Positions 18,195-31,492 of a stretch of DNA of 32,000 nt are shown here, piece by piece. Position 1 is the first letter of the stretch. Every line of letters starts with the position of its first letter. Origin of the DNA: Microbulbifer thermotolerans (GTDB lineage: Bacteria; Pseudomonadota; Gammaproteobacteria; Pseudomonadales; Cellvibrionaceae); the NCBI RefSeq assembly GCF_900112305.1, contig NZ_FOKT01000002.1, positions 497,228 through 529,227 on the forward strand. The letters run 5' to 3'. The notes beneath the pieces were generated by a model that saw nothing but the letters and a program-made list of their open reading frames with translations, searched no databases and was not told the DNA's origin. The translations under genes were made by a program, and so were the position numbers.

Positions 18195-18980
18195 TCAGGC
18201 CGAAGCCCCCGCCTTGCGTTTGCGCGCCTCCACAATGGTTTCGTAAGCCAGAGTGATACTTTTCATCTGGTCTTCTGCATGCCGCATAAACTCTTCCGGT
18301 AACCCCTTGGCGGCGAGCTTATCCGGGTGGAATTCCGCAGCCTTGCGCCGATAGGCGAGTTTCAGCTCTCGGTCGCTGACATCGGGAGTGCAGCCCAATA
18401 CATCGTAATGCTGCTTCAGGCTCTGCGCGGAAACCGATGCGCGATGGCCGAACTCCCCCTGCATGGCGGAAAAAATGGAGCTATGTAACCCCAGATCTTC
18501 GGGAATACGGCGCAGTATCTCCTCTTCCGCCGCGTGCAGCTCACCATCCGCACAGGCCACTGCGAACAGCAGGCGGTAGACCATTTCGCGCATGGCCTCG
18601 TTGCGCACCAGCTGACGGTACTGACGGGCGTAGTCGTAGATGCTGTAAGCGTCGGTTTTCGCGTTTTGGAAAATCTTGATGGCCTGCGCCCGATCCTCGG
18701 CGCTGAGGCGCAGATTATTCTGCATGAAGTCTTCAATCAGGTTGACTTCCGCCTTCGAAACCAGACCGTCCGCCTTGGCCATCTTCGCCAACATGGAAAA
18801 AACGGTGACGATAAATACCGTCTGTGCTCCTTCACGGTTCAGACCTGCCACCGCGGCACCAGCCGCCCGTTGCAGTCCGGAGCCAAAAGAGCTGCCTATC
18901 CAGGCGCCCAGTGCCGCACCGATAGGGCCTCCAAACATCAGGCCGATACCGGCTCCGATTCCCGCGCCCAACCAGGACAT
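18195..18980 (-). CDS. djlA: co-chaperone DjlA (N-terminal TM, TerB-like domain, C-terminal J domain)
   Basis: The ATG at 18980 has GGAGG upstream. The N-terminus is Gly-rich and membrane-like (MSWLGAGIGAGIGLMFGGPIGAALGAWIG). The C-terminal J domain is HYDVLGC....S..ELK.AYR....FHPDK, containing the HPD motif. Confidence 0.85.
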   Translation of the reverse strand: MSWLGAGIGAGIGLMFGGPIGAALGAWIGSSFGSGLQRAAGAAVAGLNREGAQTVFIVTVFSMLAKMAKADGLVSKAEVNLIEDFMQNNLRLSAEDRAQAIKIFQNAKTDAYSIYDYARQYRQLVRNEAMREMVYRLLFAVACADGELHAAEEEILRRIPEDLGLHSSIFSAMQGEFGHRASVSAQSLKQHYDVLGCTPDVSDRELKLAYRRKAAEFHPDKLAAKGLPEEFMRHAEDQMKSITLAYETIVEARKRKAGASA

Positions 18981-19016
18981 AATCGTTCCTCCAGGCGCCT
19001 CACCGCGCCCCTCATA

Positions 19017-19045
19017 CAAAAAGGCGCCTATGATACCACGCGCCT
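19017..19045 (-). terminator. candidate terminator of the guanidine operon
   Basis: Minus-strand RNA reads AGGCGC-(12-nt loop)-GCGCC-UUUUUG, about 85 nt after the allophanate hydrolase stop. The stem is only 6 bp and the loop is long, so confidence is low. Confidence 0.35.
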
Positions 19046-19128: not shown

Positions 19129-20931
19129 TTACTGACTCTGTAACCAATTGCGCCAACCGCCATAGTGGGTGATTTCTTCGGCACCCTTGAGGCCAGACGC
19201 CTCGCAGATAAACCCGCTCACCCAACGGCCATCGGCCAATTCCACCTTGCCGATACCCAGGGGGGCCGGGATGGCGGCGACGAAGCTGCCCAGTTCTGCG
19301 GTGGGAATAGACCAGACTTCCACTTCGATACCTCTGCCGCCGCTTTCATCGCGCATAAGTCCCGGTCGCAACGGCGGACCTCCGGCGAGGGCGAACAGCC
19401 GGTAACAAGCCGCGGTTTGGGCGCGGGCCTTCAGAACAGCCCCGCGCTCAGTCAGCTGCCAGTTCAGAGGCAATTCTTGCAAGTGGGCACCGCAAACTAA
19501 CAGATCTGTGCGTTCGCTTCCGCCGCAGTCTGGCGCCGTTGTGGGCGCAGCTTCTGTGCCCAGAGCACCTTGAGGAAGCGGCAATATCTGGCGTATCCGA
19601 TTACCGATGGATAGCAGTCTGCGATCGCTGAAGTGATCCCCCACCAGGGTCACGCCAAACGGCAAACCTCGCGTTGTAAAGGCCGTGGGAATGGCAACCG
19701 CCGCCATATCCAACAAATTCATGAAGTTGGTGTAATAACCCAACTGGGAATTGAAGCGCACCGGCTCGGCCAGCATTTCGTCTACGCGGAAGAGACGTCC
19801 CGCCGTCGGGGTGAGCAGACAGTCCAGCCCTTCCATCTGCTCGAAACAGGCCAGGCGCAGCTCCTGCAAGCGGTATTGGGCTCGGAACAGGTCTGTGGCA
19901 GGTGGCGTCTTGCCCGGCTCAATGATGGCGCGCACCACTGGATGGATCGCTTCGGGATCACTGTTTAACAGGGACTCGCAGGCGATATAGCGTTCGGCCA
20001 CCCAGGGGCCTTCATAGAGCAGCCGCGCCGCCTCATCGAAGGGGGTGAAGTCAACGGTTACCAGTTCGATGCCCGCGCCAGTCAGTGCCGCCAGGGTATC
20101 CGCATAGGCCCGCGCATAGTGGTCAGACCCAAAGAATTTCAGCTGTTCCTGAGGCAAAACGCCGATTCGCAACGGACCGCTTCGCAGGCCGTACTGGCGG
20201 GCGGCGTTATCGAACCCGTTGCGACGACTATAACCGTCGCGGGCATCAAAACCTTCAGCGCAGGCCAAAACCGTATTGGCGTCATCAGTGTCCAAAGTGA
20301 AAATGCTGATGCAATCCAGCGACCGGCAAGCGGGCACCAGCCCCGTGGACGACAAGAGTCCCCGTGTGGGCTTGAGGCCAACCAGATTGTTGAAGCAGGC
20401 GGGGACCCGGCCAGAGCCCGCAGTGTCCGTGCCCAAGCTGAAGCTGGCCAGCCCCAGCGCCACCGCTACAGCAGAGCCGGAGCTGGAACCTCCGGAGATG
20501 TAATCCGAATCAAAGGCGTTGCGGCATGGTCCATAAGGTGACCGGGTGCCGTTCAGCCCGGTGGCAAACTGGTCCAGGTTAGTCTTGCCGACGGGAATGG
20601 CGCCGGCATCGATCAGCTGCTGCACTACCTGTGCCGAGCTTTCCGGTGTGTAGGCAAAAGTTGGGCAGGCCGCGGTGGTGGGTATCCCGGCCAGATCAAT
20701 GTTGTCCTTGATGGCAAAGGGAATACCCCACAGGGGGTGGCTGGCCGGGTCCTTCTGTGCCAGGGCCTCCAGCCAGGGTTGCTGCTCCTCGGCCGTCAGC
20801 AGGTGAATCCAGATATTGTGCGCCTCATATTCAGCTGTACGGCGGCGGATATCCGCCATCAGCTGCGCCGGTGTCAGGCGGCCTTCGGCAAAGGCACGCT
20901 GAAGCGCAGAAATACTCATGTCAATGCTCAT
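19129..20931 (-). CDS. allophanate hydrolase (amidase-signature N-domain + C-terminal domain)
   Basis: 600 aa with the amidase signature GGSSSGSAVAVA and FAIKDNIDLAG. Its start overlaps the carboxylase stop (ATGA, 20928-20931). Confidence 0.9.
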   Translation of the reverse strand: MSIDMSISALQRAFAEGRLTPAQLMADIRRRTAEYEAHNIWIHLLTAEEQQPWLEALAQKDPASHPLWGIPFAIKDNIDLAGIPTTAACPTFAYTPESSAQVVQQLIDAGAIPVGKTNLDQFATGLNGTRSPYGPCRNAFDSDYISGGSSSGSAVAVALGLASFSLGTDTAGSGRVPACFNNLVGLKPTRGLLSSTGLVPACRSLDCISIFTLDTDDANTVLACAEGFDARDGYSRRNGFDNAARQYGLRSGPLRIGVLPQEQLKFFGSDHYARAYADTLAALTGAGIELVTVDFTPFDEAARLLYEGPWVAERYIACESLLNSDPEAIHPVVRAIIEPGKTPPATDLFRAQYRLQELRLACFEQMEGLDCLLTPTAGRLFRVDEMLAEPVRFNSQLGYYTNFMNLLDMAAVAIPTAFTTRGLPFGVTLVGDHFSDRRLLSIGNRIRQILPLPQGALGTEAAPTTAPDCGGSERTDLLVCGAHLQELPLNWQLTERGAVLKARAQTAACYRLFALAGGPPLRPGLMRDESGGRGIEVEVWSIPTAELGSFVAAIPAPLGIGKVELADGRWVSGFICEASGLKGAEEITHYGGWRNWLQSQ

Positions 20932-23900
20932 ACCTTGTCCTCCCCGGTTGTCAGTGTGGCTTCATCCTCCAGCACCACCAGCGCCTGACCGGCGCTGACC
21001 CGCCCGCCTTGGTTGGAGAGCAGCTGGCTGACGACGCCGCTACAGGGGGCGCAGATGGGGATTTCCATTTTCATGGACTCAAGAATCATCAGCAGCTGTC
21101 CGGCTTCCACCGTGTCACCGGCCCGGACTTCCGTCTGCCAGACGCTGCCGGACACAGGGCTGTCCACCAGAGTGGCGTCCTCTGGCCAGCTCTGCTCAAT
21201 GGATTCGGCTTCTGCCTCCTCCACTTCAAAGTTGAACTGGCCGTTGGCATGCCAACGTTCCAGCTCTTCCTGAAAGGCCTCGTTGCGCTGTTCAAGGAAT
21301 GTCTGGATGTCACCGGCGTTGTCCGCAACAAACTGCTCGTATTCCGCCAGGGAGAAATGGCTGTCCTCGATCTTCAACGGGTAGCGACCTTGCGGGAAGT
21401 CGCGCCGAATCTGCTGCAGCTCCTCATGGCTGACTTCGTAAAAACGTATCTGATCGAAAAAACGCAGCAGCCAGGGTTTTTCAAAAGCATCGGTGCGCCG
21501 GTAGCGATTCCACATCTGCAGGGTGCGGCCGACAAACTGGTAGCCACCGGGCCCTTCCATGCCGTACACGCAGAGATAGGAGCCGCCAATCCCCACGGAG
21601 TTCTCCGCGGTCCAGGTGCGCGCCGGGTTGTATTTGGTAGTCACCAGGCGGTGGCGCGGGTCTACCGGTGTGGCCACCGGTGCCCCCAGGTAGACATCCC
21701 CCAGCCCCATCACCATATAGGAAGCGTTGAATACGATCTGTTTGACCTGGTCAATGCTGTCCAGGCCGTTGATGCGACGGATAAACTCCAAATTACTTGG
21801 ACACCAGGGAGCATTCCTGCGCACGCTCTGTTCGTATTTCTCAATAGCCAGCCGGCAGGCCGCGTCATCCCAGGAAAGTGGCAGGTGGACAATACGCGAC
21901 GGCACACTCAGTTGCGCCAGCTGCTGTGACAGCTCGCGCTCGCCTTTCTCTATATGGGCCAGCAGATGTTTATGGCTGAGCTCCTGAGTGTCGAAGTGGA
22001 TCTGCAGGGAACGGATACCCGGGGTCAGCTCGCGCAACCCGGGCAAGGGATGCTGCTGCAGCCACTGCATCAGCGCATGGGCGCGAAAGCGCAGGCGGAT
22101 ATCCAGCGCCTGGGGGCCGTACTCCACCAACAGGAAATGGTCCCCGGCAGCGCGGCAGACGATCTCGTCGCCAAAAGTCTCAGCGTCAAATCGGGCCAGT
22201 ATTGGGGTGTCCGGCTCCACCGGCTGCCAGCTGCACGTCTGTGCCTGCAGTGTTTCGATCGCCCGGTTCTGAGCCGCTTCCAGGGCCACGGCCTGTTCCA
22301 GGCTGACCGGCACAAAGCGCACCTTGTCCCCGGCCCGCAACTGGCCCAGTTTCCACAGGTCCGCCGTGATCACCGTGGCCGGACAGACAAAGCCGCCCAG
22401 GGAAGGACCGTCCGGCCCCAGAATCACCGGCATGTCGCCAGTAAAATCCACGGTGCCGAAGGCGTAGGCGTTGTCGTGGATATTGGAGGGATGCAAACCG
22501 GCTTCTCCCCCATCGCGGCGCGCCCATTGCGGCTTGGGGCCGATCAGACGCACACCGGTGCGGCTGGAGTTGTAGTGGATCTCCCAATCCGTATCGAAGA
22601 AGGTGCGCATATCCTCATCGGTAAAGAAGTCCGGAGCCCCGTGGGGGCCGTAGATCACGCGCAGCTCCCAGTGATGGTCCAGAACAGGCCGCAGCGCCTC
22701 CGCGACCCCCCGCACGGGAACAGAGCCGGGGTCAGCGGCCGCATCGAGATGCAGTACATCACCGGTACGCAGAGCGCGGCCATTGTGGCCGCCGAACTGA
22801 CCGAGGGTGAAGGTGGAGCGGGAGTTCAGGTAACCGGGACACTGAATACCGCCACACACAGCCAGGTAGGCCCGCGCCCCCGCCCGGACTCGCCCCAGCT
22901 GCAGAGTCTGTCCCGCCGCCACCGGAACTACCTGCCAGCCCGGTATTGCCTGTCCGTCCAGGGTGGCATCGATGGTGGCGCCCGTGAGGGCAATCCGGGT
23001 ATCACAGGCAAAGGTCAGCGTGGGTCCCTGCAGGGTGATCTCCAGTCCCGCTGCACTGTCCGGGTTACCCAGCAATCGGTTGGCCAGGCGGAAGGAGCGG
23101 CTGTCGAAAGGACCGGAGGGTGGCACGCCCACATCCCAGTGCCCCTGCCGCCCCGGAAAATCCTGGATGGTGGTCTGAGTGCCCCCCTGAAGCACATCGA
23201 TCCGGGCCGGCTGATAGCGGAAGCTGTTCAGGTAGCGAGTGGTGACCTGGCCCCGGGCCAGGGTATCGTCACGGCTGAGCGCACGCAGGTAGTCCAGGTT
23301 GGTTTCGCTGCCGTACAGTTCGGTGGCATCCAGTGTCTGTTGCAGTTTTTCCAATGCTGCGGGGCGATCGCCGGCGCGGACAATGACCTTGGCCAGCATG
23401 GGGTCAAAGAAAGGAGGAACCTCGATGCCGGATTCGATCCAGTGGTCAATCCGCACACCTTCCCCCTCGGGAAAGGACACATGGCTCAGCAGGCCGGCAC
23501 AGGGCTGGAAATCGCGCCAGGGATCTTCCGCATAGAGGCGCACCTGGATAGCGTGCCCCGTCGGTTTCAGCTGTGCCCGCTGCGCCTCCAGATCCGGTGC
23601 TTCGCCAGCGGCGATACGCAGCATCCATTCCACCAAATCAACGCCGTACACCTCCTCGGTCACCCCGTGCTCCACCTGCAGCCGGGTGTTGACCTCAAGA
23701 AAGTAGAAATCCCCGCTGTCAGCGTCGTAGATGAACTCCACCGTGCCCGCGTTGCGATACTCAACACTGGCCAGCAGCTTCTCTGCGGTACTGTGCAGGC
23801 GGGTGCGCACCGCTTCACTCAGATTGGGCGCTGGGCACTCCTCCACCACCTTTTGGTTGCGGCGCTGGCTGGAGCAGTCCCGCTCACCGATGGCCAGGGC

Positions 23901-24557
23901 TCTGCCGGAGCCGTCGCCCACCACCTGGACTTCGATATGGCGGGCACGGGCAATGAACTTCTCCAAAAAAACACCGTCATCGGCAAAGTTGTTGGCGCCC
24001 AGGCGTTTGACAGAATCAAAGGCCGCATCCAGCTCTGCGACGTCATGGCATAACTGCATACCGATGCCGCCACCACCGGCGGTGCTCTTGAGCATAACCG
24101 GATAACCGATGCGTTGTGTTTCGGCGCGGGCCGCGGCCAGATCGGTCAACAGCTCCGAGCCCGGCAGCAGGGGCACACCGGCGGCCTCCGCCAGGGCACG
24201 GGCCCGGTGCTTCAGACCGAACGCCTGCATCTGCTCAGCGGTGGGGCCGATAAAGGTGATGCCCGCCGCCTCACAGCGTTCCACAAAGGCGGCATTTTCA
24301 CTGAGGAATCCGTAACCGGGGTGTATGGCCTGAGCGCCGCTGTCGGCGGCGATCTCCAGCAGGCGCTCGACATTCAGATAGGTATCAGCCGCAGCGCCTT
24401 CCCCCAGACTGTAGGCTTCATCGGCGTGACGCACATGCAGACTGTCGGCATCGCACTCGGCATAAACTGCCACCGAGGCGATACCCATACGCTGCAGCGT
24501 GCGAATCACGCGGGTTGCAATAGCGCCGCGGTTGGCAATCAGAACCTTGGTAAACAT
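20928..24557 (-). CDS. biotin-dependent urea-carboxylase-family enzyme, predicted guanidine carboxylase
   Basis: Start set at the ATG at 24557 (MFTKVLIANRGAIA, the canonical biotin-carboxylase N-terminus). The central part has KipA/KipI-like carboxyltransferase domains. The C-terminus has the biotinyl motif ESMKMEI. The guanidine assignment rests on the riboswitch context and the DUF1989 gene pair. Confidence 0.9.
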   Translation of the reverse strand: MFTKVLIANRGAIATRVIRTLQRMGIASVAVYAECDADSLHVRHADEAYSLGEGAAADTYLNVERLLEIAADSGAQAIHPGYGFLSENAAFVERCEAAGITFIGPTAEQMQAFGLKHRARALAEAAGVPLLPGSELLTDLAAARAETQRIGYPVMLKSTAGGGGIGMQLCHDVAELDAAFDSVKRLGANNFADDGVFLEKFIARARHIEVQVVGDGSGRALAIGERDCSSQRRNQKVVEECPAPNLSEAVRTRLHSTAEKLLASVEYRNAGTVEFIYDADSGDFYFLEVNTRLQVEHGVTEEVYGVDLVEWMLRIAAGEAPDLEAQRAQLKPTGHAIQVRLYAEDPWRDFQPCAGLLSHVSFPEGEGVRIDHWIESGIEVPPFFDPMLAKVIVRAGDRPAALEKLQQTLDATELYGSETNLDYLRALSRDDTLARGQVTTRYLNSFRYQPARIDVLQGGTQTTIQDFPGRQGHWDVGVPPSGPFDSRSFRLANRLLGNPDSAAGLEITLQGPTLTFACDTRIALTGATIDATLDGQAIPGWQVVPVAAGQTLQLGRVRAGARAYLAVCGGIQCPGYLNSRSTFTLGQFGGHNGRALRTGDVLHLDAAADPGSVPVRGVAEALRPVLDHHWELRVIYGPHGAPDFFTDEDMRTFFDTDWEIHYNSSRTGVRLIGPKPQWARRDGGEAGLHPSNIHDNAYAFGTVDFTGDMPVILGPDGPSLGGFVCPATVITADLWKLGQLRAGDKVRFVPVSLEQAVALEAAQNRAIETLQAQTCSWQPVEPDTPILARFDAETFGDEIVCRAAGDHFLLVEYGPQALDIRLRFRAHALMQWLQQHPLPGLRELTPGIRSLQIHFDTQELSHKHLLAHIEKGERELSQQLAQLSVPSRIVHLPLSWDDAACRLAIEKYEQSVRRNAPWCPSNLEFIRRINGLDSIDQVKQIVFNASYMVMGLGDVYLGAPVATPVDPRHRLVTTKYNPARTWTAENSVGIGGSYLCVYGMEGPGGYQFVGRTLQMWNRYRRTDAFEKPWLLRFFDQIRFYEVSHEELQQIRRDFPQGRYPLKIEDSHFSLAEYEQFVADNAGDIQTFLEQRNEAFQEELERWHANGQFNFEVEEAEAESIEQSWPEDATLVDSPVSGSVWQTEVRAGDTVEAGQLLMILESMKMEIPICAPCSGVVSQLLSNQGGRVSAGQALVVLEDEATLTTGEDKV

Positions 24558-24569
24558 GGTGGTATCCCG

Positions 24570-24614
24570 CACGGGCCGTCCCGTGAACTTCTATACGACA
24601 GCGGTCGTCCGCTG
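24570..24614 (-). promoter_or_regulatory. guanidine-II (mini-ykkC) riboswitch candidate, internal to the operon
   Basis: Minus-strand RNA reads CAGCGG-ACGA-CCGCUG, then a 13-nt linker, then CACGGG-ACGG-CCCGUG, then CGGGAUACCACC-AUG. These are two 6-bp hairpins, each with an ACGR tetraloop closed by GG/CC. The second ends 12 nt before the carboxylase start codon. Confidence 0.75.
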
Positions 24615-24685
24615 AAGGTGTGTATCCGGTGTGGTGTCTGAAGACCGTTGCTGACAGGGAGCAAACGGGGATGGTTGGCAGTGCC

Positions 24686-25330
24686 TTATTCGTTATCCCA
24701 CACCAGCAGTTCAATCGGCGTGGGGTTGTAGCCGTTGCAGGGGTTGTTTAGCTGTGGACAGTTGGAGATCAGTACCACCACATCCATCAGAGCCGTCAGC
24801 TCCACATATTTGCCGGGGGCCGAGATGCCGTCCTCGAAGGTGAGTCCGCCCTCTTCGGTGACCGGAACATTCATGAAGAAATTGATGTTGTGGCCGATGT
24901 CGCGCTTGCTGATGCCATATTCCGGGTGCTCGGCGATGGCCAGCATCCAACTGTCCCTGCACGCGTGCATGCAACGCTTTTCCAGGGCGTAACGCACTGT
25001 GTTGCTTTCGGTGGCGCAGGCGCCGCCCAGGGTATCGTGGCGGCCACAAGTATCAGCCACGATTTCCAGCATCGGGCGGTTTTCGCTGGAGCGCAGTACG
25101 CTGCCGGTGGTCAGGTAGAGGTTGCCCTGCTCGCGGATGGTATCCATGGCACTGTAGCGTTCGGCAGGGTCGGCCGCACTGTAAAAGAGCGTATCCGCCG
25201 CTTGGTTGCCCTCCAGATCCAGGATGCGCAATGTCTGTCCCTCACGGACAATACCGATAAAGTAATCCCCAGCATCCACCTTGGTACGGGAAACCGCCTG
25301 CTCTGCCTGACGTGTACTTTCAGTCAACAT
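24686..25330 (-). CDS. DUF1989 urea-carboxylase-associated protein; probable carboxyguanidine deiminase subunit
   Basis: 214 aa and paralogous to the next gene (shared C...HDT/ET.CG and N.F.NV patterns). The position, a DUF1989 pair just upstream of the carboxylase, is the conserved arrangement. Confidence 0.8.
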
Positions 25331-25340
25331 ATTCGCCTCC

Positions 25341-26057
25341 TTATTTGCCCAGGTGATACAAGGCGTTGTTCTGGAAACCGCGCCGGTTTTCCGGGCGGAA
25401 ATTCAGGCAGTAATCGTCGTCGGACACGGGATCTGCTTCACCCAGATCGATACGGACCGGCCTTTGGGGATAGGTGGGCTCCTGGCACAGAGGGTGCGGG
25501 CAGTTGTGCAGCACCACCAGGGTGTCCATCTCGAAACGCAGGGTCAGATGGCTGCCCGGCTGGCTGTGTCCCTCCACCAGTTGCATACGACCTTCAGCGT
25601 CGGCGGCCACCTTGCTGAACCAGTTGATATTGGCCGCCAGGTCCGCACATCCGAGACCGTACTTAGCCAGCTCGACAAGAAAGGCGTCGTGACCATTCTG
25701 GTGCCAGTTATTGCGGTCGTGCTGATAATCACGCACACCCCAGCGCCCGGTGACCTGATCGGCGCGGATATTGCCGCAGACGGTTTCGTGCCAACCCAGG
25801 CTGTCCTCAACAATGGAGGCAAAAATACGTCCCATATCGGAGTAGAGACAGTTGCCCCGGGTGAGCTTAAAGGTATGTTGGCACTTGAGCGTATCTGGTG
25901 CGTTGTAGCGCTCCAGCAGGTTCTCCGGATTGTAGAACAGCATGCCCACATTGGCGCCGCCCTCGAGATCGGTCAGGCGCATCAGGGTGCCTTTGCGCAT
26001 GCGCAGCGACCAGTGGCCACCCGCCGGAATTTCGGTGGTGTATTCAATGCTTTTCAT
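25341..26057 (-). CDS. DUF1989 urea-carboxylase-associated protein; probable carboxyguanidine deiminase subunit
   Basis: 238 aa. It is the second DUF1989 paralog. Its start overlaps the stop of the ABC ATPase gene (26054-26057). Confidence 0.8.
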
Positions 26058-26839
26058 AATGCCTTTTCTGTTTCTCTTGCAGTGAGCGTGAGATCGCGAT
26101 CAATTTTCTTAAGCTTTCTGCCGTCCATCTGACCCACCGGCAGGTCGTAAGTAATCGTGGCGCCATAGGCATCAGGCGCCTGGGGGTCGAGACGGGTCTT
26201 GTCAAACACCCACAACCGGGTACCTAAATAAAACCCCTCGGTGAGGTCATGGGTAACCATAAACACAGTGAGCTCGTATTCGCGCCAAAGACGCAACACG
26301 AGATCATGCATATCGGCCCGAATACCGGGGTCCAGTGCGCCGAAAGGTTCATCCAGGAGCAGAATACGCGGCTGTCCCAACAATGCCTGAGCAATGGCGA
26401 GACGTTGTCGCATTCCCCCTGAAAGCTCCCCCGGATAAAGCGATTCCGCATTTCCCAAACCGACTTCCGCCAGTATTGCCCGCGCTTCATCCCGCGCCTG
26501 CTGGCGGGCCGCCCCAAACAACAAACCGGTCACGCCGGGGCGCCCGAAACCGCGGGCCGCCATGACGTTTTCCAGCACTGACATGTGAGGAAAAACCGAG
26601 TACTGCTGAAAAACAATGCCTCGATCCGGACCCGGCTCGTCGGGGATCGGTTTTCCGTCTAGCAGAAGTTCACCACTACTGGCGGTCTCTGTCCCCAATA
26701 GCATTTTAAGAAAGGTGCTCTTACCACAGCCGGACGCCCCGACCAGCGTAATAAATTCACCTTCTTCAACCCGCAGATTGAGTCTTTCCAAAACAACCTT
26801 GTCACCGTATTTCTTCCACAGATTGCGCGCCTCTATCAT
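26054..26839 (-). CDS. ABC transporter ATP-binding protein (NitT/TauT family, urea-carboxylase-region type)
   Basis: It has Walker A (GASGCGKST), the ABC signature (LSGGMRQR) and Walker B (ILLLDEPF). It shares 1 nt with the permease stop (TAATG). Confidence 0.9.
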   Translation of the reverse strand: MIEARNLWKKYGDKVVLERLNLRVEEGEFITLVGASGCGKSTFLKMLLGTETASSGELLLDGKPIPDEPGPDRGIVFQQYSVFPHMSVLENVMAARGFGRPGVTGLLFGAARQQARDEARAILAEVGLGNAESLYPGELSGGMRQRLAIAQALLGQPRILLLDEPFGALDPGIRADMHDLVLRLWREYELTVFMVTHDLTEGFYLGTRLWVFDKTRLDPQAPDAYGATITYDLPVGQMDGRKLKKIDRDLTLTARETEKAL

Positions 26840-27657
26840 TACTGCACTCCTTTACTCTGCCAGGGGAAGAGACGGCGACTGACCCAGGCCAGAACCGAAT
26901 CGATCAAAAAGGCCAACACAGTGATCCAGGCCACATAAGGCAATATCACGTCCATGGCCATATAGCGACGGACCAGAAAAATCCGGTAGCCGAGGCCATC
27001 AGTGGAGGCAATGGCTTCCGCCGCAATCAAGAACAACCAGCCGGCGCCCAGCGACAGGCGCACGGCGTCAATCAGTCTCGGCATTAACTGCGGAAGTAAT
27101 ACGCGGAAGATAATTTGGCTGGTATTGGCACCGAGGGTTTGTGCCTTTACCAGCTGTTCACGGGGAATTTCCAGTGTTCTGCGCTGGATATCACGCGCGA
27201 TAAAGGGTGTGATCCCAATGGCGATCAACGCCACTTTGGATACTTCCCCCAAACCGAAGACAATAAACAGCACCGGCAAAAGAGCCAGCGGGGGAATCAG
27301 CGATACCACAGTGAGCAGTGGACTGGCCACCGCAGAAACGCTGGGCAATGCACCGGTCAGTAAACCCAGCACTAAACCGACAAACGCTGCGATCAATACA
27401 CCCAGCCCCAGACGGGTCAGGCTACTGGTGGTATCCCCCCAAAATAAATATTCCCCCGTGCGCTTGCTCGGTTCAAACGCCATACGCTGGATAGCGTCGC
27501 CAATCTGACTGAAGCCCGGCAACAGTTTGTCACTGGGGTTTTCGGCCAGGCGTGCATCCGACGCAACAATGTAAAGAATCACCAGCAATACAAAAGGCAG
27601 CAAACCGAACATCATGCGCGTTGCCGGTGCCGGCGTCAGGTTAATAAATCGTTTCAT
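26839..27657 (-). CDS. ABC transporter permease (NitT/TauT family)
   Basis: 272 aa and polytopic, with a BPD-type permease loop (AQTLGANTSQIIFRVLLPQLMP). Confidence 0.9.
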   Translation of the reverse strand: MKRFINLTPAPATRMMFGLLPFVLLVILYIVASDARLAENPSDKLLPGFSQIGDAIQRMAFEPSKRTGEYLFWGDTTSSLTRLGLGVLIAAFVGLVLGLLTGALPSVSAVASPLLTVVSLIPPLALLPVLFIVFGLGEVSKVALIAIGITPFIARDIQRRTLEIPREQLVKAQTLGANTSQIIFRVLLPQLMPRLIDAVRLSLGAGWLFLIAAEAIASTDGLGYRIFLVRRYMAMDVILPYVAWITVLAFLIDSVLAWVSRRLFPWQSKGVQ

Positions 27658-27735: not shown

Positions 27736-28776
27736 TCAGAGATCACCATCAACGGCCATCTGCAACCAGGCTGGGTTGAAACGCAGCTTGATATTGTTGC
27801 GATCGCCATAGATACCGGCAGGTGTTTCGATACCGATAAAACCGGCATCTGGTGCGCCTTCCCCAAGCAGACCGTGCTCGAAGGAGAACTCGGCCACTTT
27901 TTGCATCGTGGTGCGCAGGTCTGGACTGTTGGTAAATTTCAAGGCCGCTTCAGGGGTGTAGAACATCGCGGTAGTGGCAAGCTGTGCTTCATAGCCTGCC
28001 AAATCAGTACCTGCGGCCTGAGCCATAAAGGTTTTTGCTGCCTTAGCGGTGGCATCCTTCGCCTGCATAATTTCCGTTAATTCGAACCAGGCTCCGGTCA
28101 AAGCTTTACCGAGCTCGGGGCTTTTCTCCAGAACTTCGGTTTTAACCACCAACATATCGAGGATTTCCCCGGGGATTTGGGACGAATCAAATACTTGGTT
28201 TGCGCCCGGCATGGACAAAATCTCACCCAACGGCGGATTCCAGGTCGCCACCGCCGTAACTTCCGGCGTTCCATAGACCGCGACCATATCAGCATCAGAA
28301 GTGTTGACCACCTGAATATCCCGCTCACTCAAGCCGACCGTTTCCAGAGCGCGGGCGAGGAAGTAGTGGGATACACTGAGCTCGACCAGATTCACTTTCT
28401 GGCCTTTAATATCCGCCAATGACGTTTTGTCTTTGAGCACAATGCCATCATTGCCGTTGGAAAAGTCATTGATAATCAAGACGGTGTTATCGACACCACC
28501 TGCTGCGGGAATGGTCAGCGTGTCCATGTTGGTTATGGAACAGGCATCGAATTCGCCGACCGTGTACTGATTGATCGATTCGATATAGTCATTGAACTGC
28601 ACAACTTCGATATCGATGTCGTACTTATCGGCCCATTTCTGCACAATCCCCTGCTCGACACCATATGCCCATGGCATCCAGCCGGCATAGATGGACCAGC
28701 ACACTTTGAAAGTATCGCGGGCGGAAGCTGTCGACGACAGCGTCAATGCAAGTAGAAGAATGGAAAGTCGCTTCAT
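27736..28776 (-). CDS. periplasmic substrate-binding protein of the ABC transporter (urea-carboxylase-region type; predicted guanidine-binding)
   Basis: Start set at the ATG at 28776 (MKRLSILLLALTLSSTASA, a signal peptide), with GAGAGGTG upstream. It shows NMT1/TauA-like periplasmic binding-protein patterning. Confidence 0.85.
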   Translation of the reverse strand: MKRLSILLLALTLSSTASARDTFKVCWSIYAGWMPWAYGVEQGIVQKWADKYDIDIEVVQFNDYIESINQYTVGEFDACSITNMDTLTIPAAGGVDNTVLIINDFSNGNDGIVLKDKTSLADIKGQKVNLVELSVSHYFLARALETVGLSERDIQVVNTSDADMVAVYGTPEVTAVATWNPPLGEILSMPGANQVFDSSQIPGEILDMLVVKTEVLEKSPELGKALTGAWFELTEIMQAKDATAKAAKTFMAQAAGTDLAGYEAQLATTAMFYTPEAALKFTNSPDLRTTMQKVAEFSFEHGLLGEGAPDAGFIGIETPAGIYGDRNNIKLRFNPAWLQMAVDGDL

Positions 28777-28839
28777 GGCGCACCTCTCAGTTGGCTTCGG
28801 TCGGTTGCTCACGGAGTACTCCCGGCATCACGCCTGTAG

Positions 28840-28934
28840 TCCTCCCGGGCTTTTATCCCGCCGTGTAACCTTTCACTGAAAGGTCGAGTGCTCTCGGACC
28901 AGTCACCGTTATAAAACAGCCGGAACCCTAGCGC
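28840..28934 (-). promoter_or_regulatory. guanidine-I riboswitch (ykkC-yxkD motif, subtype 1) aptamer
   Basis: Minus-strand RNA reads GCGCUAGGGUUCCGGCUGUUUUAUAACGGUGACUGGUCCGAGAGCACUCGACCUUUCAGUGAAAGGUUACACGGCGGGAUAAAAGCCCGGGAGGAC. All three hallmark blocks are present in the right order: CUAGGGUUCCG, GGUCCGAGAG and ACACGGCGGGAUAAAAGCCCGGGAG. The aptamer lies about 65 nt upstream of the first gene's ATG. Confidence 0.9.
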
Positions 28935-28989: not shown

Positions 28990-29005
28990 ATCAAAATACG
29001 TGCCA
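28990..29005 (-). promoter_or_regulatory. sigma-54-like promoter candidate for the guanidine operon (imperfect -12)
   Basis: The minus strand reads TGGCAC-GTATT-TTGAT. The -24 box is perfect and the spacing is correct, but the -12 element is GA instead of GC. It lies about 55 nt upstream of the riboswitch. I found no convincing sigma-70 -35/-10 pair nearby. Confidence 0.3.
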
Positions 29006-29401: not shown

Positions 29402-29417
29402 TGGCATAATTAGTGCA
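29402..29417 (+). promoter_or_regulatory. sigma-54 (RpoN) type promoter candidate for the oxygenase unit
   Basis: The sequence is TGGCAT-AATTA-GTGCA, with GG (29403-04) and GC (29415-16) at the canonical GG-N10-GC spacing. It matches 14 of the 16 positions of TGGCAC-N5-TTGCA counting the five N positions, or 9 of the 11 specified bases. It lies about 120 nt upstream of the ATG, which leaves room for the riboswitch leader. Confidence 0.55.
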
Positions 29418-29443: not shown

Positions 29444-29458
29444 AAGTATTCCCCCCAA

Positions 29459-29506
29459 CCGGGACGACCCGGCCGGCATCCGCCGGAACCGCTCTGGACG
29501 GCCAGA
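29459..29506 (+). promoter_or_regulatory. guanidine-II (mini-ykkC) riboswitch candidate in the oxygenase leader
   Basis: CCGGG-ACGA-CCCGG (29459-29472), then a 20-nt linker, then TCTGG-ACGG-CCAGA (29493-29506). Both ACGR loops are closed by GG/CC. They are followed by CCUUU..AAAGG pairing potential over the AAGGAG ribosome-binding site (29524-29529) and the ATG at 29538. Confidence 0.75.
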
Positions 29507-29537: not shown

Positions 29538-30563
29538 ATGAGCAAACCCACCCGCACCTTTGACCACATCCCTGTTGTCGATATCAGCGGCCTTTATTCC
29601 GATAAATTGGCAGATCGGCAGCAAGTGGCCAAACAAATCGCTGATGCAGCCACCAACGTGGGCTTCCTGTACATTACGGGCCACAGAATTCCACAGTCGT
29701 TGATCGATGCCCTGCTAATCCGCACCAAGGAATTCTTCGCCCGCCCTCACCGGGAAAAAATGCGCTACTACATCGGCAATTCATCCAACCATAGCGGTTA
29801 TGTCCCCGAAGGCGAAGAGCAGTTTTACGGTGGGAAAATCGATCACAAAGAAGCCTATGACATCAATAATGATCTTGGCCATCTGAGCCAGCAAGGGCCA
29901 ATGATAGGCCCGACCCAATGGCCGGATATGGCTGGTTTTAAAGAGGATGTCAGCGCTTATTACCAGGCTGCGTTAAATTTAGGTCAGTTACTCTTCCGGG
30001 GCTTTGCGCTTGCACTCGACCTGCCGGAAGATACCTTTGACGATAAAGTCAAAAACCCTCCCAGCCAGCTTCGACTGATCCATTACCCTTACAACCCCGA
30101 TGCTCAGGACCGGGAGGGCATCGGTGCTCATACAGATTACGAGTGCTTTACCCTGCTATTACCAACTACCGATGGCTTGGAAGTTCTAAACGATAACGGA
30201 GAATGGATTGATGCGCCCGTAATTCCTGGGAGCTTTGTTGTCAATATCGGCGATATGATGGAAATACTCAGTAATGGCCGTTTTATCGCCACCTCACATA
30301 GAGTCCGCAAAGTAAAAGAAGAGCGCTATTCTTTCCCATTGTTTTGCAGTTGTGACTACGACACGATCATTGAACCTCTCGTCGATCCTGCTCCCGGAAT
30401 TAAGCCTGGGACCTATCAACCCATGTGCTGTGGAGATCATTTACTCGCTCAAACCATGCATACGTTTCACTACTTGAAGGAGCGGGTAGCAAAAGGCGAG
30501 TTGCAATTCCCAGATTCCTCGGCCGATGCATCATCCTTCGGCAAACTGCGGGAGGTTTTATAA
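29538..30563 (+). CDS. 2-oxoglutarate/Fe(II)-dependent oxygenase (isopenicillin-N-synthase / ethylene-forming-enzyme-like family)
   Basis: Start set at the ATG at 29538 (AAGGAG upstream). The N-terminal DIOX_N-like region reads IPVVDISGL...GFLYITGHRI. The facial triad is GIGAHTDYE (H-x-D) plus SHRV, and the 2OG-binding Arg-x-Ser is RYSF. The SGYVPEGEE block resembles EFE's SGYVASGEE. Confidence 0.85.
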   Translation: MSKPTRTFDHIPVVDISGLYSDKLADRQQVAKQIADAATNVGFLYITGHRIPQSLIDALLIRTKEFFARPHREKMRYYIGNSSNHSGYVPEGEEQFYGGKIDHKEAYDINNDLGHLSQQGPMIGPTQWPDMAGFKEDVSAYYQAALNLGQLLFRGFALALDLPEDTFDDKVKNPPSQLRLIHYPYNPDAQDREGIGAHTDYECFTLLLPTTDGLEVLNDNGEWIDAPVIPGSFVVNIGDMMEILSNGRFIATSHRVRKVKEERYSFPLFCSCDYDTIIEPLVDPAPGIKPGTYQPMCCGDHLLAQTMHTFHYLKERVAKGELQFPDSSADASSFGKLREVL

Positions 30564-30565
30564 TC

Positions 30566-31492
30566 ATGCACCTTGCCGAGCTCACTTCTGTAATCAATTC
30601 ACCCACTGCTAACACTGTGCCGCGCTGGATGCGCGGCTGCTTTCAGCGGCGCAGTATCAGTTTTGCCAACGGCCAGACGGATACAGATACCCGCGTATTT
30701 TGGCTGCAGTCTAACCTTCTGACCATTGACCTGCGTTTACCGGTCACCGCACAGCAGGAAAAAGAAGGCGACGATATTCAAAAAAAAGCAGATTACGAAG
30801 GTTGGTATGCGCATGCCGACTGGGATGGAAAACAACTTCAGTGGCGTGGTGGTGCCACTTATCAGTTGCACAATCGCTGGCCGGAACCGGCGATTTTACA
30901 GCGCATCGGCAATTGCATGATGGAATTTGCCCCGAGTGGTATTTATGTCGAGGATTGGCGGTTACTTTCAGATCAACCTGGGCCACTCATTGGACTGGAG
31001 CTGATCAGTGAGACAGACCTCAGCAGCGGCACAACGTCTCCGCGCAAGGGGGCACTGATTATCTGCGGCCGGCATGCCGGACTGGTAATCGACCGCCCCC
31101 ACCCGATCAGCGATAGTGGAGGCCTGTTAAAGCAACGATTGACGAATCTACAGATTGATGAAAGCGAACGGAGCAATCTGTTGGACTTTGAAACTTCAGT
31201 GGCTTTGGGATCGCTGTCTGAAGGGTTCACCGTACAGCACAGCCTGCATAAATACCGCTTGCAACAACCCCTGCTTTCTCTGACCGGGTTTGAGCTCGAT
31301 GCAAAATCGGGTTACCTGCGCCAGCGCACAGAAGACAACGGCAAAGCAGTAGAGCGGCTCTTTCGTATTGATTGTTGCGAAATGGAATTTCCCTTTACCC
31401 CGTGTACACCGTCGTCAGAGGATAGCCTCGAGTGGTTCCAGCGGGAGGCACCGACTCTGACGCGCTATACCCGTGTGCTTTATCAGAATTGA
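30566..31492 (+). CDS. hypothetical protein, no recognisable family (308 aa), translationally coupled to the oxygenase
   Basis: Start set at the ATG at 30566, 2 nt after the oxygenase TAA, with GGGAGG 10 nt upstream. It has no signal peptide or transmembrane segment and no motif I can place. The 47-codon upstream extension in the ORF track overlaps the oxygenase and was rejected. Confidence 0.6.
   Translation: MHLAELTSVINSPTANTVPRWMRGCFQRRSISFANGQTDTDTRVFWLQSNLLTIDLRLPVTAQQEKEGDDIQKKADYEGWYAHADWDGKQLQWRGGATYQLHNRWPEPAILQRIGNCMMEFAPSGIYVEDWRLLSDQPGPLIGLELISETDLSSGTTSPRKGALIICGRHAGLVIDRPHPISDSGGLLKQRLTNLQIDESERSNLLDFETSVALGSLSEGFTVQHSLHKYRLQQPLLSLTGFELDAKSGYLRQRTEDNGKAVERLFRIDCCEMEFPFTPCTPSSEDSLEWFQREAPTLTRYTRVLYQN

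Follow-up and report, generated by a model that had tools for sequence, protein, structure and literature searches.

A guanidine-II element between cgdB and gca

The stretch of Microbulbifer thermotolerans DNA analysed here (32,000 nucleotides (nt) of contig NZ_FOKT01000002.1; hereafter the window, numbered from its first letter) carries a set of guanidine-assimilation genes on its minus strand, and within that set a candidate guanidine-II (mini-ykkC) riboswitch at 24570-24614 (-), the subject of this work. According to Pfam and NCBIfam matches, the minus-strand gene order is ATP-binding cassette (ABC) substrate-binding protein (27736-28812), ABC importer permease (26839-27657), ABC importer ATPase (26054-26839), two DUF1989 proteins, carboxylase and allophanate hydrolase. 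The DUF1989 pair comprises cgdA (25341-26057; TIGR03425 UAAP1) and cgdB (24686-25330; TIGR03424 UAAP2), the latter a carboxyguanidine deiminase subunit in the functional naming of Sinn et al. 2025 (Nat Commun 16:8957, PMC12508155). The carboxylase gene gca (20928-24557, 1209 amino acids) is annotated as a urea carboxylase gene (TIGR02712, 1873 bits); a preference of the enzyme for guanidine over urea is presumed from the riboswitch context and the literature. The start of the allophanate hydrolase gene (atzF; 19129-20931, Amidase and AH_C) overlaps the carboxylase stop (4-nt overlap), and translational coupling of the two genes is therefore likely. The guanidine carboxylase pathway genes are complete, on one strand and contiguous, with neighbours overlapping or 10-128 nt apart and with family matches that include TIGR03427. 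For the first gene of the operon, encoding the substrate-binding protein, the mechanical start is GTG 28812; the true start is probably ATG 28774-28776, which opens a signal-peptide-like sequence (MKRLSILL) and is preceded by GAGAGGU.

Two hairpins lie between cgdB and gca, P1 (CAGCGG-ACGA-CCGCUG, 24599-24614, -; from the Rfam RF01068 alignment) and P2 (CACGGG-ACGG-CCCGUG, 24570-24585, -), each with a 6-base-pair (bp) stem and a loop closed by GG/CC, separated by the 13-nt linker UCGUAUAGAAGUU (24586-24598, -). The octamers GGACGACC in P1 and GGACGGCC in P2 give each ACGR loop two G-C closing pairs. P2 is followed by the 12-nt spacer CGGGAUACCACC (24558-24569, -), which holds a weak Shine-Dalgarno (SD)-like GGGA at 24565-24568, 7 nt before the gca start codon (ATG 24555-24557), and the element is thus placed directly upstream of a guanidine-related gene. 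The original prediction had described both hairpins at these coordinates with their loops, closing pairs and 13-nt separation, and had put the end of P2 12 nt before the start codon, all of which was confirmed from the minus-strand sequence. Its figure of 113 nt for the cgdB-gca gap had to be corrected: the ATG lies 128 nt from the cgdB stop (24686-24688, 71 nt upstream of P1), and the 113 nt run to a GTG at 24572. This GTG, where the mechanical open reading frame (ORF) call begins, is in frame, lies inside P2 and is not a conserved start. The gca start is ATG 24557 (MFTKVLIANRG), and the relatives all begin MF.KVLIANRG at an ATG.

Guanidine-II riboswitches are characterized by two ACGR-tetraloop hairpins with two G-C closing pairs each (16 conserved nt in total) and a linker of 7-40 nt with variable sequence, and they have been described as translational ON switches (PMC5558903). 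As predicted, the 13-nt linker falls within the range of the class. The proposed check with the mini-ykkC covariance model also returned a match, RF01068 (Guanidine-II) scoring 32.5 bits for 24570-24614 at a gathering score of 32 (E=0.0053, window). The pattern GGACGRCC-N10-40-GGACGRCC matched twice in the window and never in 100 dinucleotide shuffles, and the window element reached 51.4 bits against a covariance model built from orthologous elements (model R1, described below).

Conservation and covariation of the internal element

Relatives were collected by a CgdB protein scan with one genome per species, which yielded the 80 closest loci, all from Gammaproteobacteria and with 76-93% identity, the closest being Marinobacterium (92-93%). 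A strict two-octamer search placed an element directly downstream of cgdB in 69 of these 80 loci. Inspection added four elements with G.U or A-U closing-pair variants, found without the pattern, and one whose linker is 59 nt long. No element is present in five loci, all with a short cgdB-gca gap, and one further contig ends too early, so that the internal element stands at the cgdB-gca junction in about 74 of 79 informative loci. In the five loci without the switch (L022, L038, L045, L055 and L058) the cgdB-gca gap goes down to about 10 nt, which suggests direct cgdB-gca translational coupling in place of the switch.

Alignment A1 and model R1 were built from the 65 unique orthologous elements, R1 being trained on the gca-linked subfamily. 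R1 matched 72 of the 80 loci at E <= 2e-4, always at the cgdB-gca junction, and two more loci have long linkers. The internal element has a same-strand guanidine-I core some 4.3 kb upstream of it in 64 loci. Among the 69 pattern-derived elements, loop 1 reads ACGA in 50 and ACGG in 19, and loop 2 reads ACGA in 41 and ACGG in 28; as these elements were found via GGACGRCC, their ACGR loops are given by selection and the invariance of the closing pairs is partly ascertainment. With the same reservation, ACGR loops with GG/CC closing pairs are invariant in 65/65 unique elements of A1.

The stems vary while keeping their pairing. P1 base pairs 3-6 are paired in 61-65 of the 65 orthologous elements, with 4-6 pair types, and P2 base pairs 3-5 in 59-65, with covariation. 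Over all stem cells, 94% are paired versus 75.5% in shuffles, and both sides have changed in 132 cells versus 37; such both-side changes are seen in 8 of the 12 stem pairs, outside the conserved octamers. The covariation score is 0.474 versus 0.127 in shuffles (0/500 reach 0.474), and controls slid by 1-3 columns gave 0.02-0.19. In an alignment-free, octamer-anchored count, pairing extends over 6 bp in P1 and over 5 bp in P2, with background levels beyond. The linker, 13 nt in the window, is 10-21 nt long in the majority of relatives but reaches 50 and 59 nt in two of them, and P2 ends 10-24 nt before the ATG in the relatives.

The marginal Rfam score, together with the very small and simple build of the class, would be compatible with a chance occurrence or a generic repeat (REP-like or terminator-like) that senses no ligand. 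However, no shuffle matched the pattern, the element recurs at the same position in about 74 of 79 loci from many genera with covariation, a U-tract is absent and an orthologous element binds ligand; the comparative data effectively refute this explanation, to which we give next to no weight. A pair of stable GC-rich hairpins between two cistrons could also make the RNA downstream of them more stable, and the element might then serve mainly in RNA stability or processing, by protecting the 5' end of a processed gca-atzF RNA or by blocking RNase E, with ligand control being secondary. Guanidine-III reportedly governs both translation and the access of RNase E, and control of mRNA level and of translation is often linked according to Sinn et al. 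(PMC12508155). Nevertheless, such a role has no need of ACGR loops and GG/CC closing pairs in 65/65 elements, which are the ligand-binding and kissing nucleotides of the class, and the fixed distance of 10-24 nt to the ATG points to translation initiation. We regard a predominant stability function as very unlikely.

The curated Rfam models were applied to seven diverse loci and found Guanidine-I in 7/7 and the internal Guanidine-II in 5/7 (34.0-49.6 bits). The two missed loci clearly contain the motif, which shows the curated threshold to be borderline for the gca-linked subfamily. Elements at L025:10679-10723, L016:10803-10847 and L092:5919-5959 score below the RF01068 gathering score despite clear two-hairpin ACGR structures. 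The P1 closing pairs are the canonical GG/CC in the window, as against a GGAG...CUCC variant in Halomonas L050 and L077. In L092, a 13-kb metagenome locus, and in its relatives L087, L089, L091-L094, L096 and L099, three guanidine-I and two guanidine-II elements occur within 13 kb; the divergent guanidine-I is only about 2.8 kb from the internal guanidine-II there, and the operon content is unlike that of the window.

Guanidine-I and promoters of the operon

At the head of the operon lies a full-length Guanidine-I aptamer (ykkC subtype 1, RF00442; 28840-28942, -; 95.9 bits versus 63, model positions 1-107), which contains the core motifs CUAGGGUUCCG, GGUCCGAGAG and ACACGGNGGGANAA. The claim that a guanidine-II element is embedded in an operon headed by guanidine-I therefore stands, with Rfam matches for both classes and confirmed gene families. 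The further suggestion that carboxylase and allophanate hydrolase would be gated apart from the transporter and carboxyguanidine deiminase genes is supported by the position of the element directly before that gene pair.

A scan of 24300-25400 returned no sigma-70-like promoter and no intrinsic terminator. Because the genes belong to nitrogen assimilation, a sigma-54 scan was added. A sigma-54-like -24/-12 element, TGGCACGUAUUUUGAU, is located at 28990-29005 (-), about 48 nt upstream of Guanidine-I, with GA rather than GC as its -12 dinucleotide; this site (TGGCACGTATTTTGAT) is the sole 1-mismatch sigma-54 match in the window. Sigma-54 matches over the whole window are near chance (174 versus 163 expected), and only the position of the best match and its recurrence in relatives count. 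For the relatives we required a -24/-12 element with invariant GG/GC and at most two mismatches within 160 nt upstream. Such a site precedes Guanidine-I in 49/69 loci but never the internal Guanidine-II (0/71), and none occurs in a coding control (0/68). From the cgdB stop to the first octamer the median distance is 29 nt (range 6-167; 75 nt in the window), and most relatives, with 6-35 nt, therefore have no room for an intergenic promoter.

The promoter asymmetry and the short gaps favour a single mRNA with an internal switch. The rival arrangement, two adjacent operons in which guanidine-II forms the 5' leader of a separate gca-atzF transcript started within or after cgdB, draws on the 128-nt gap of the window, which could hold a promoter, and on the limitation of the scans to sigma-70 and sigma-54 consensus types. 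Against it speak the lack of sigma-70-like sites in 24300-25400, the 0/71 versus 49/69 distribution of sigma-54-type sites, the 6-35 nt between cgdB and the first octamer in most relatives and the operon of Sinn et al. (PMC12508155), who draw Gd-II as internal and report the whole operon to be co-induced. We consider two transcripts unlikely, and the internal transcript that the original prediction had offered as an alternative is disfavoured by promoter scans and gap lengths, other promoter types being possible.

How the two switches may combine

In the Guanidine-I aptamer, the hairpin between GGUCCGAGAG and the 3' hairpin has a 5' strand, ACCUUUCAGU (28875-28884), that is complementary to ACUGAGAGGU (28782-28791) in the SD region of the first gene. 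This pairing spans 10 bp in the window, is predicted in the minimum-free-energy (MFE) structure and lies just before the probable start ATG 28774-28776. At least 7 contiguous complementary bases are found in 41/55 unique leaders (mean 7.9 versus 5.5 shuffled), and the two sides co-vary. A U-tract terminator is absent after the aptamer in the window, and leaders of the same operon family almost never have one. This lack of a terminator, together with the complementarity between an aptamer strand and the ribosome-binding site of the first gene, makes Guanidine-I look translational here, and we infer that it is a translational ON switch. A translational switch at the 5' end could not reach a start codon about 4 kb downstream, which would provide a rationale for a dedicated switch at gca.

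Near the internal switch, relatives carry a purine-rich AGG, GGA or GGAG 1-5 nt 3' of P2 and 7-10 nt before the ATG, and the GGGA of the window is the putative SD of gca. The linker starts with UCGUA in 24/68 unique gca-linked elements from several genera (window 24594-24598 (-); A1 columns 17-21). With the last G of P1, UCGU forms the complement of the P1 loop extended by one base (ACGAC), and UCGUA could thereby enter an alternative hairpin of 5 bp in which the ligand-binding loop is hidden; the UCGUA-loop complementarity is above shuffles (3.56 versus 2.49), but is confounded by shared ancestry. Two candidates for SD masking were rejected. A helix between AUCCC (24668-24672) and GGGAU (24564-24568) appears only in the MFE structure of the window and is absent from the centroid, and it cannot be a conserved feature, the AUCCC position being occupied by coding sequence in most relatives. 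The anti-SD model of Pseudomonas aeruginosa, formed by the linker and the 5' side of P1, is not supported in the gca-linked family.

Taken together, we propose the following course of events. The mRNA would most likely be made from the sigma-54-type promoter upstream of the guanidine-I leader and extend over the ABC importer genes, cgdA, cgdB, gca and the allophanate hydrolase gene, in this order. In the ligand-free guanidine-I leader, the central-hairpin strand would pair with the ribosome-binding site of the first gene; with guanidine bound, the strand would be locked into the aptamer and this ribosome-binding site freed. Farther downstream, guanidine, and probably methylguanidine too, would bind both ACGR loops and bring P1 and P2 into a loop-loop kissing dimer, by analogy with characterised class II riboswitches; guanidinium binding by the window element is predicted from the orthologous Gd-II of Vreelandella (Halomonas) boliviensis. 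The dimer would render the ribosome-binding site 3' of P2 usable, an unmasking of the SD that we propose purely by analogy, gca would be translated, and the allophanate hydrolase gene would follow via coupling to gca. The costly ATP- and biotin-dependent step would thus be made only when the mRNA is present, probably under nitrogen limitation, and (methyl)guanidine is inside the cell.

Several observations weigh against this reading. At the internal element, the RF01068 score is just 0.5 bit over threshold, and the cgdB-gca gap region folds no better than shuffles (z = 0.37). The GGGA of the window is a weak SD, and no conserved anti-SD was found for the gca start, the predicted partners differing between loci in the base-pair probabilities of 68 elements; complementarity of the SD spacer is also no better than in shuffles, either with the 5' flank (3.85 versus 3.84) or with the linker (4.28 versus 4.42). 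The 28990-29005 promoter site has GA in place of the invariant GC at -12. The 128-nt gap of the window is longer than that of most relatives, and a promoter of an unscanned type, or one inside cgdB, is possible. Finally, Sinn et al. presume Gd-I to be transcriptional in their own species (PMC12508155), which differs from the translational mode proposed here. With these points taken into account, we consider it highly probable that 24570-24614 (-) is a bona fide guanidine-II riboswitch inside a polycistronic guanidine-assimilation mRNA, with the mechanism proposed for it.

A divergent class II element and methylguanidine genes

On the plus strand, the divergent side of the operon presents a second Guanidine-II-type element at 29456-29506 (+), a pattern match with an Rfam score of 26.3 bits, below the gathering score of 32. 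It consists of P1 (CCGGG-ACGA-CCCGG, 29459-29472, +), a linker hairpin (CCGGC-AUCC-GCCGG, 29473-29486, +) and P2 (UCUGG-ACGG-CCAGA, 29493-29506, +), followed by CCUUU...AAAGGAG, a possible SD-masking hairpin. Its R1 score is 21.5 bits; R1 was trained on gca-linked elements, and the value is therefore not evidence against the element. The window thus holds three guanidine-class riboswitches, one of them sub-threshold. A sigma-54-like element, TGGCAUAAUUAGUGCA, is located about 40 nt upstream at 29402-29417 (+) and has an equivalent in 35/45 testable metagenome loci. The sites at 28990-29005 (-) and 29402-29417 (+) point outward from the divergent intergenic region, one per 5' leader. At the other end of the operon, just downstream of the allophanate hydrolase gene and on the same strand, is a gene for a protein with TerB and DnaJ domains (18195-19019, -).

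The second element precedes a gene for a 2-oxoglutarate/Fe(II) dioxygenase (29538-30563, +; Pfam DIOX_N and 2OG-FeII_Oxy), whose product shares 54% identity (E 3e-124) with that of the gene in the mgdH position of the Halomonas L077 gca operon. Sinn et al. 2025 (PMC12508155) characterised MgdH as a methylguanidine hydroxylase. The window oxygenase is MgdH-like by its sequence, with methylguanidine as a putative substrate. Starting 2 nt after the oxygenase stop, a partner ORF of 308 amino acids (30566-31492, +) matches no Pfam family and is distantly MgdL-like. Its similarity to the L077 protein at the mgdL position is weak (29% over 86 amino acids, E 2e-6), other loci bridge the two proteins, and a DLRLP motif is aligned in both that may correspond to the catalytic D49/R51 reported for MgdL.

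Oxygenase homologs were examined in 80 metagenome loci. A two-hairpin ACGR element stands 40-120 nt upstream of about 47/80 of them, the partner ORF is directly downstream of the oxygenase in 55/80, and several loci repeat the whole divergent layout of the window. The linkers of oxygenase-linked class II elements (L081-L138) usually form a short hairpin whose stem sequences vary by locus, and an SD-occluding hairpin is typical after P2 (CCUUU...AAAGG in the window). A stand-alone unit of sigma-54 promoter, class II element and mgdH-mgdL was not found described in the literature searched, and we make no claim that it is unreported. The curated RF01068 model under-calls both the gca-linked and the oxygenase-linked subfamilies. 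As the Rfam threshold misses part of the gca-linked subfamily and of the class II elements before mgdH-like genes, these genes are probably under-annotated as guanidine-regulated.

The neighbourhood of these genes bears on what the internal switch senses. In-line probing of the V. boliviensis riboswitches gave a dissociation constant (KD) of 44 µM for Gd-I, which is guanidine-specific, and for the internal Gd-II KD values of 93 µM for guanidine and 83 µM for methylguanidine (PMC12508155). Of the two-threshold design suggested by the original prediction, only weak support remains, with the published guanidine KD values differing about 2-fold (44 versus 93 µM); ligand specificity is the clearer difference. 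Possibly, then, the internal switch mainly serves to sense a different ligand, methylguanidine as well, and not a second guanidine threshold, and methylguanidine would open the carboxylase arm together with the divergent mgdH-like genes. The V. boliviensis measurements, in which Gd-II accepts methylguanidine and Gd-I rejects it, agree with this tentative explanation, as does the presence in the window of an MgdH-like/MgdL-like pair behind its own class II-type element. However, most of the 80 closest cgdB loci have the switch, but an MgdH homolog within 10 kb occurs only in L072 and L077, so that methylguanidine sensing cannot account for the switch in general. A role in methylguanidine sensing is also compatible with the riboswitch mechanism proposed above.

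A more speculative extension, which we put forward with reserve, joins the three riboswitches into a relay. The divergent sigma-54 promoters would respond to nitrogen limitation, the class II element would open the mgdH/mgdL-like unit, guanidine would then open guanidine-I, and the internal class II element would license the carboxylase. Methylguanidine would in this way induce its own demethylation through a methylguanidine-tolerant class II switch, the UCGUA linker would be an auto-inhibitory element tuning the threshold of the internal switch, and the internal switch would exist because a translational 5' switch cannot reach distal cistrons.

Comparison with known systems

The original prediction had taken the mixed-class arrangement within one operon to be unanalysed. 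This was refuted by two publications. A 2025 J Bacteriol review (PMC12186494, citing Sinn et al. 2021) describes guanidine-I before importer/deaminase genes and guanidine-II before carboxylase/allophanate hydrolase genes in Raoultella, Erwinia and Klebsiella. Sinn et al. 2025 (PMC12508155) report that the V. boliviensis gca operon opens with Gd-I and holds Gd-II internally, between cgdB and gca; they measured both KD values, discussed dual control and noted the layout to be 'like in several other bacteria'. Induction of the entire operon is seen on guanidine or methylguanidine. The two-switch layout is thus a normal, already published design of such operons, found here in a genus in which it may not have been pointed out before, and the additions made here (the sigma-54 asymmetry, the putative translational guanidine-I and the divergent class II unit) are refinements of a published system.

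The V. boliviensis operon resembles that of the window in its ABC importer, cgdA, cgdB, gca ... atzF content, with the same riboswitch classes at the same positions. The Halomonadaceae loci L072 and L077 share the V. boliviensis-type layout, with mgdH/mgdL between gca and atzF. In contrast, the mgdH-/mgdL-like genes of the window stand outside the operon as a divergent unit with its own class II-type leader and sigma-54-like site. Unlike the V. boliviensis Gd-I, which is presumed to be transcriptional, the window leader has no terminator and shows aptamer-SD complementarity. The enterobacterial operons (PMC12186494) likewise place importer/carboxyguanidine deaminase genes behind guanidine-I and carboxylase/allophanate hydrolase genes behind guanidine-II, but belong to a different bacterial order, whereas the closest relatives of the window are Marinobacterium.

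Placing class I first and class II before gca is the default among Gammaproteobacteria, marine ones and others (~94% of 79 species-level loci). Sinn et al. 2025 (PMC12508155) left open why a single transcript should contain two different sensors of one small molecule, and the breadth of the layout makes this operon a good natural system for that question. It can now be sharpened to three testable propositions: a single sigma-54 promoter, a 5' switch that would be translational with an aptamer-strand anti-SD, and an internal switch without a conserved anti-SD.

The guanidine-II riboswitches in the 5' untranslated regions of gdx/sugE exporter genes (Escherichia coli, P. aeruginosa and Gloeobacter violaceus) share with the window element the ACGR hairpins, the two G-C closing pairs, a linker of 7-40 nt and a nearby SD. 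They are described as translational ON switches using a loop-loop dimer and lie at the 5' end of a transcript, whereas the window element is intercistronic. Tandem glycine aptamers and the two-input gate for guanine and PRPP (phosphoribosyl pyrophosphate) likewise place more than one aptamer on one pathway, for combined or sharper logic; the aptamers of these systems, however, are adjacent and have a common expression platform within a single leader, whereas the two switches of the window are 4.3 kb apart, belong to different classes and have their own platforms before different cistrons.

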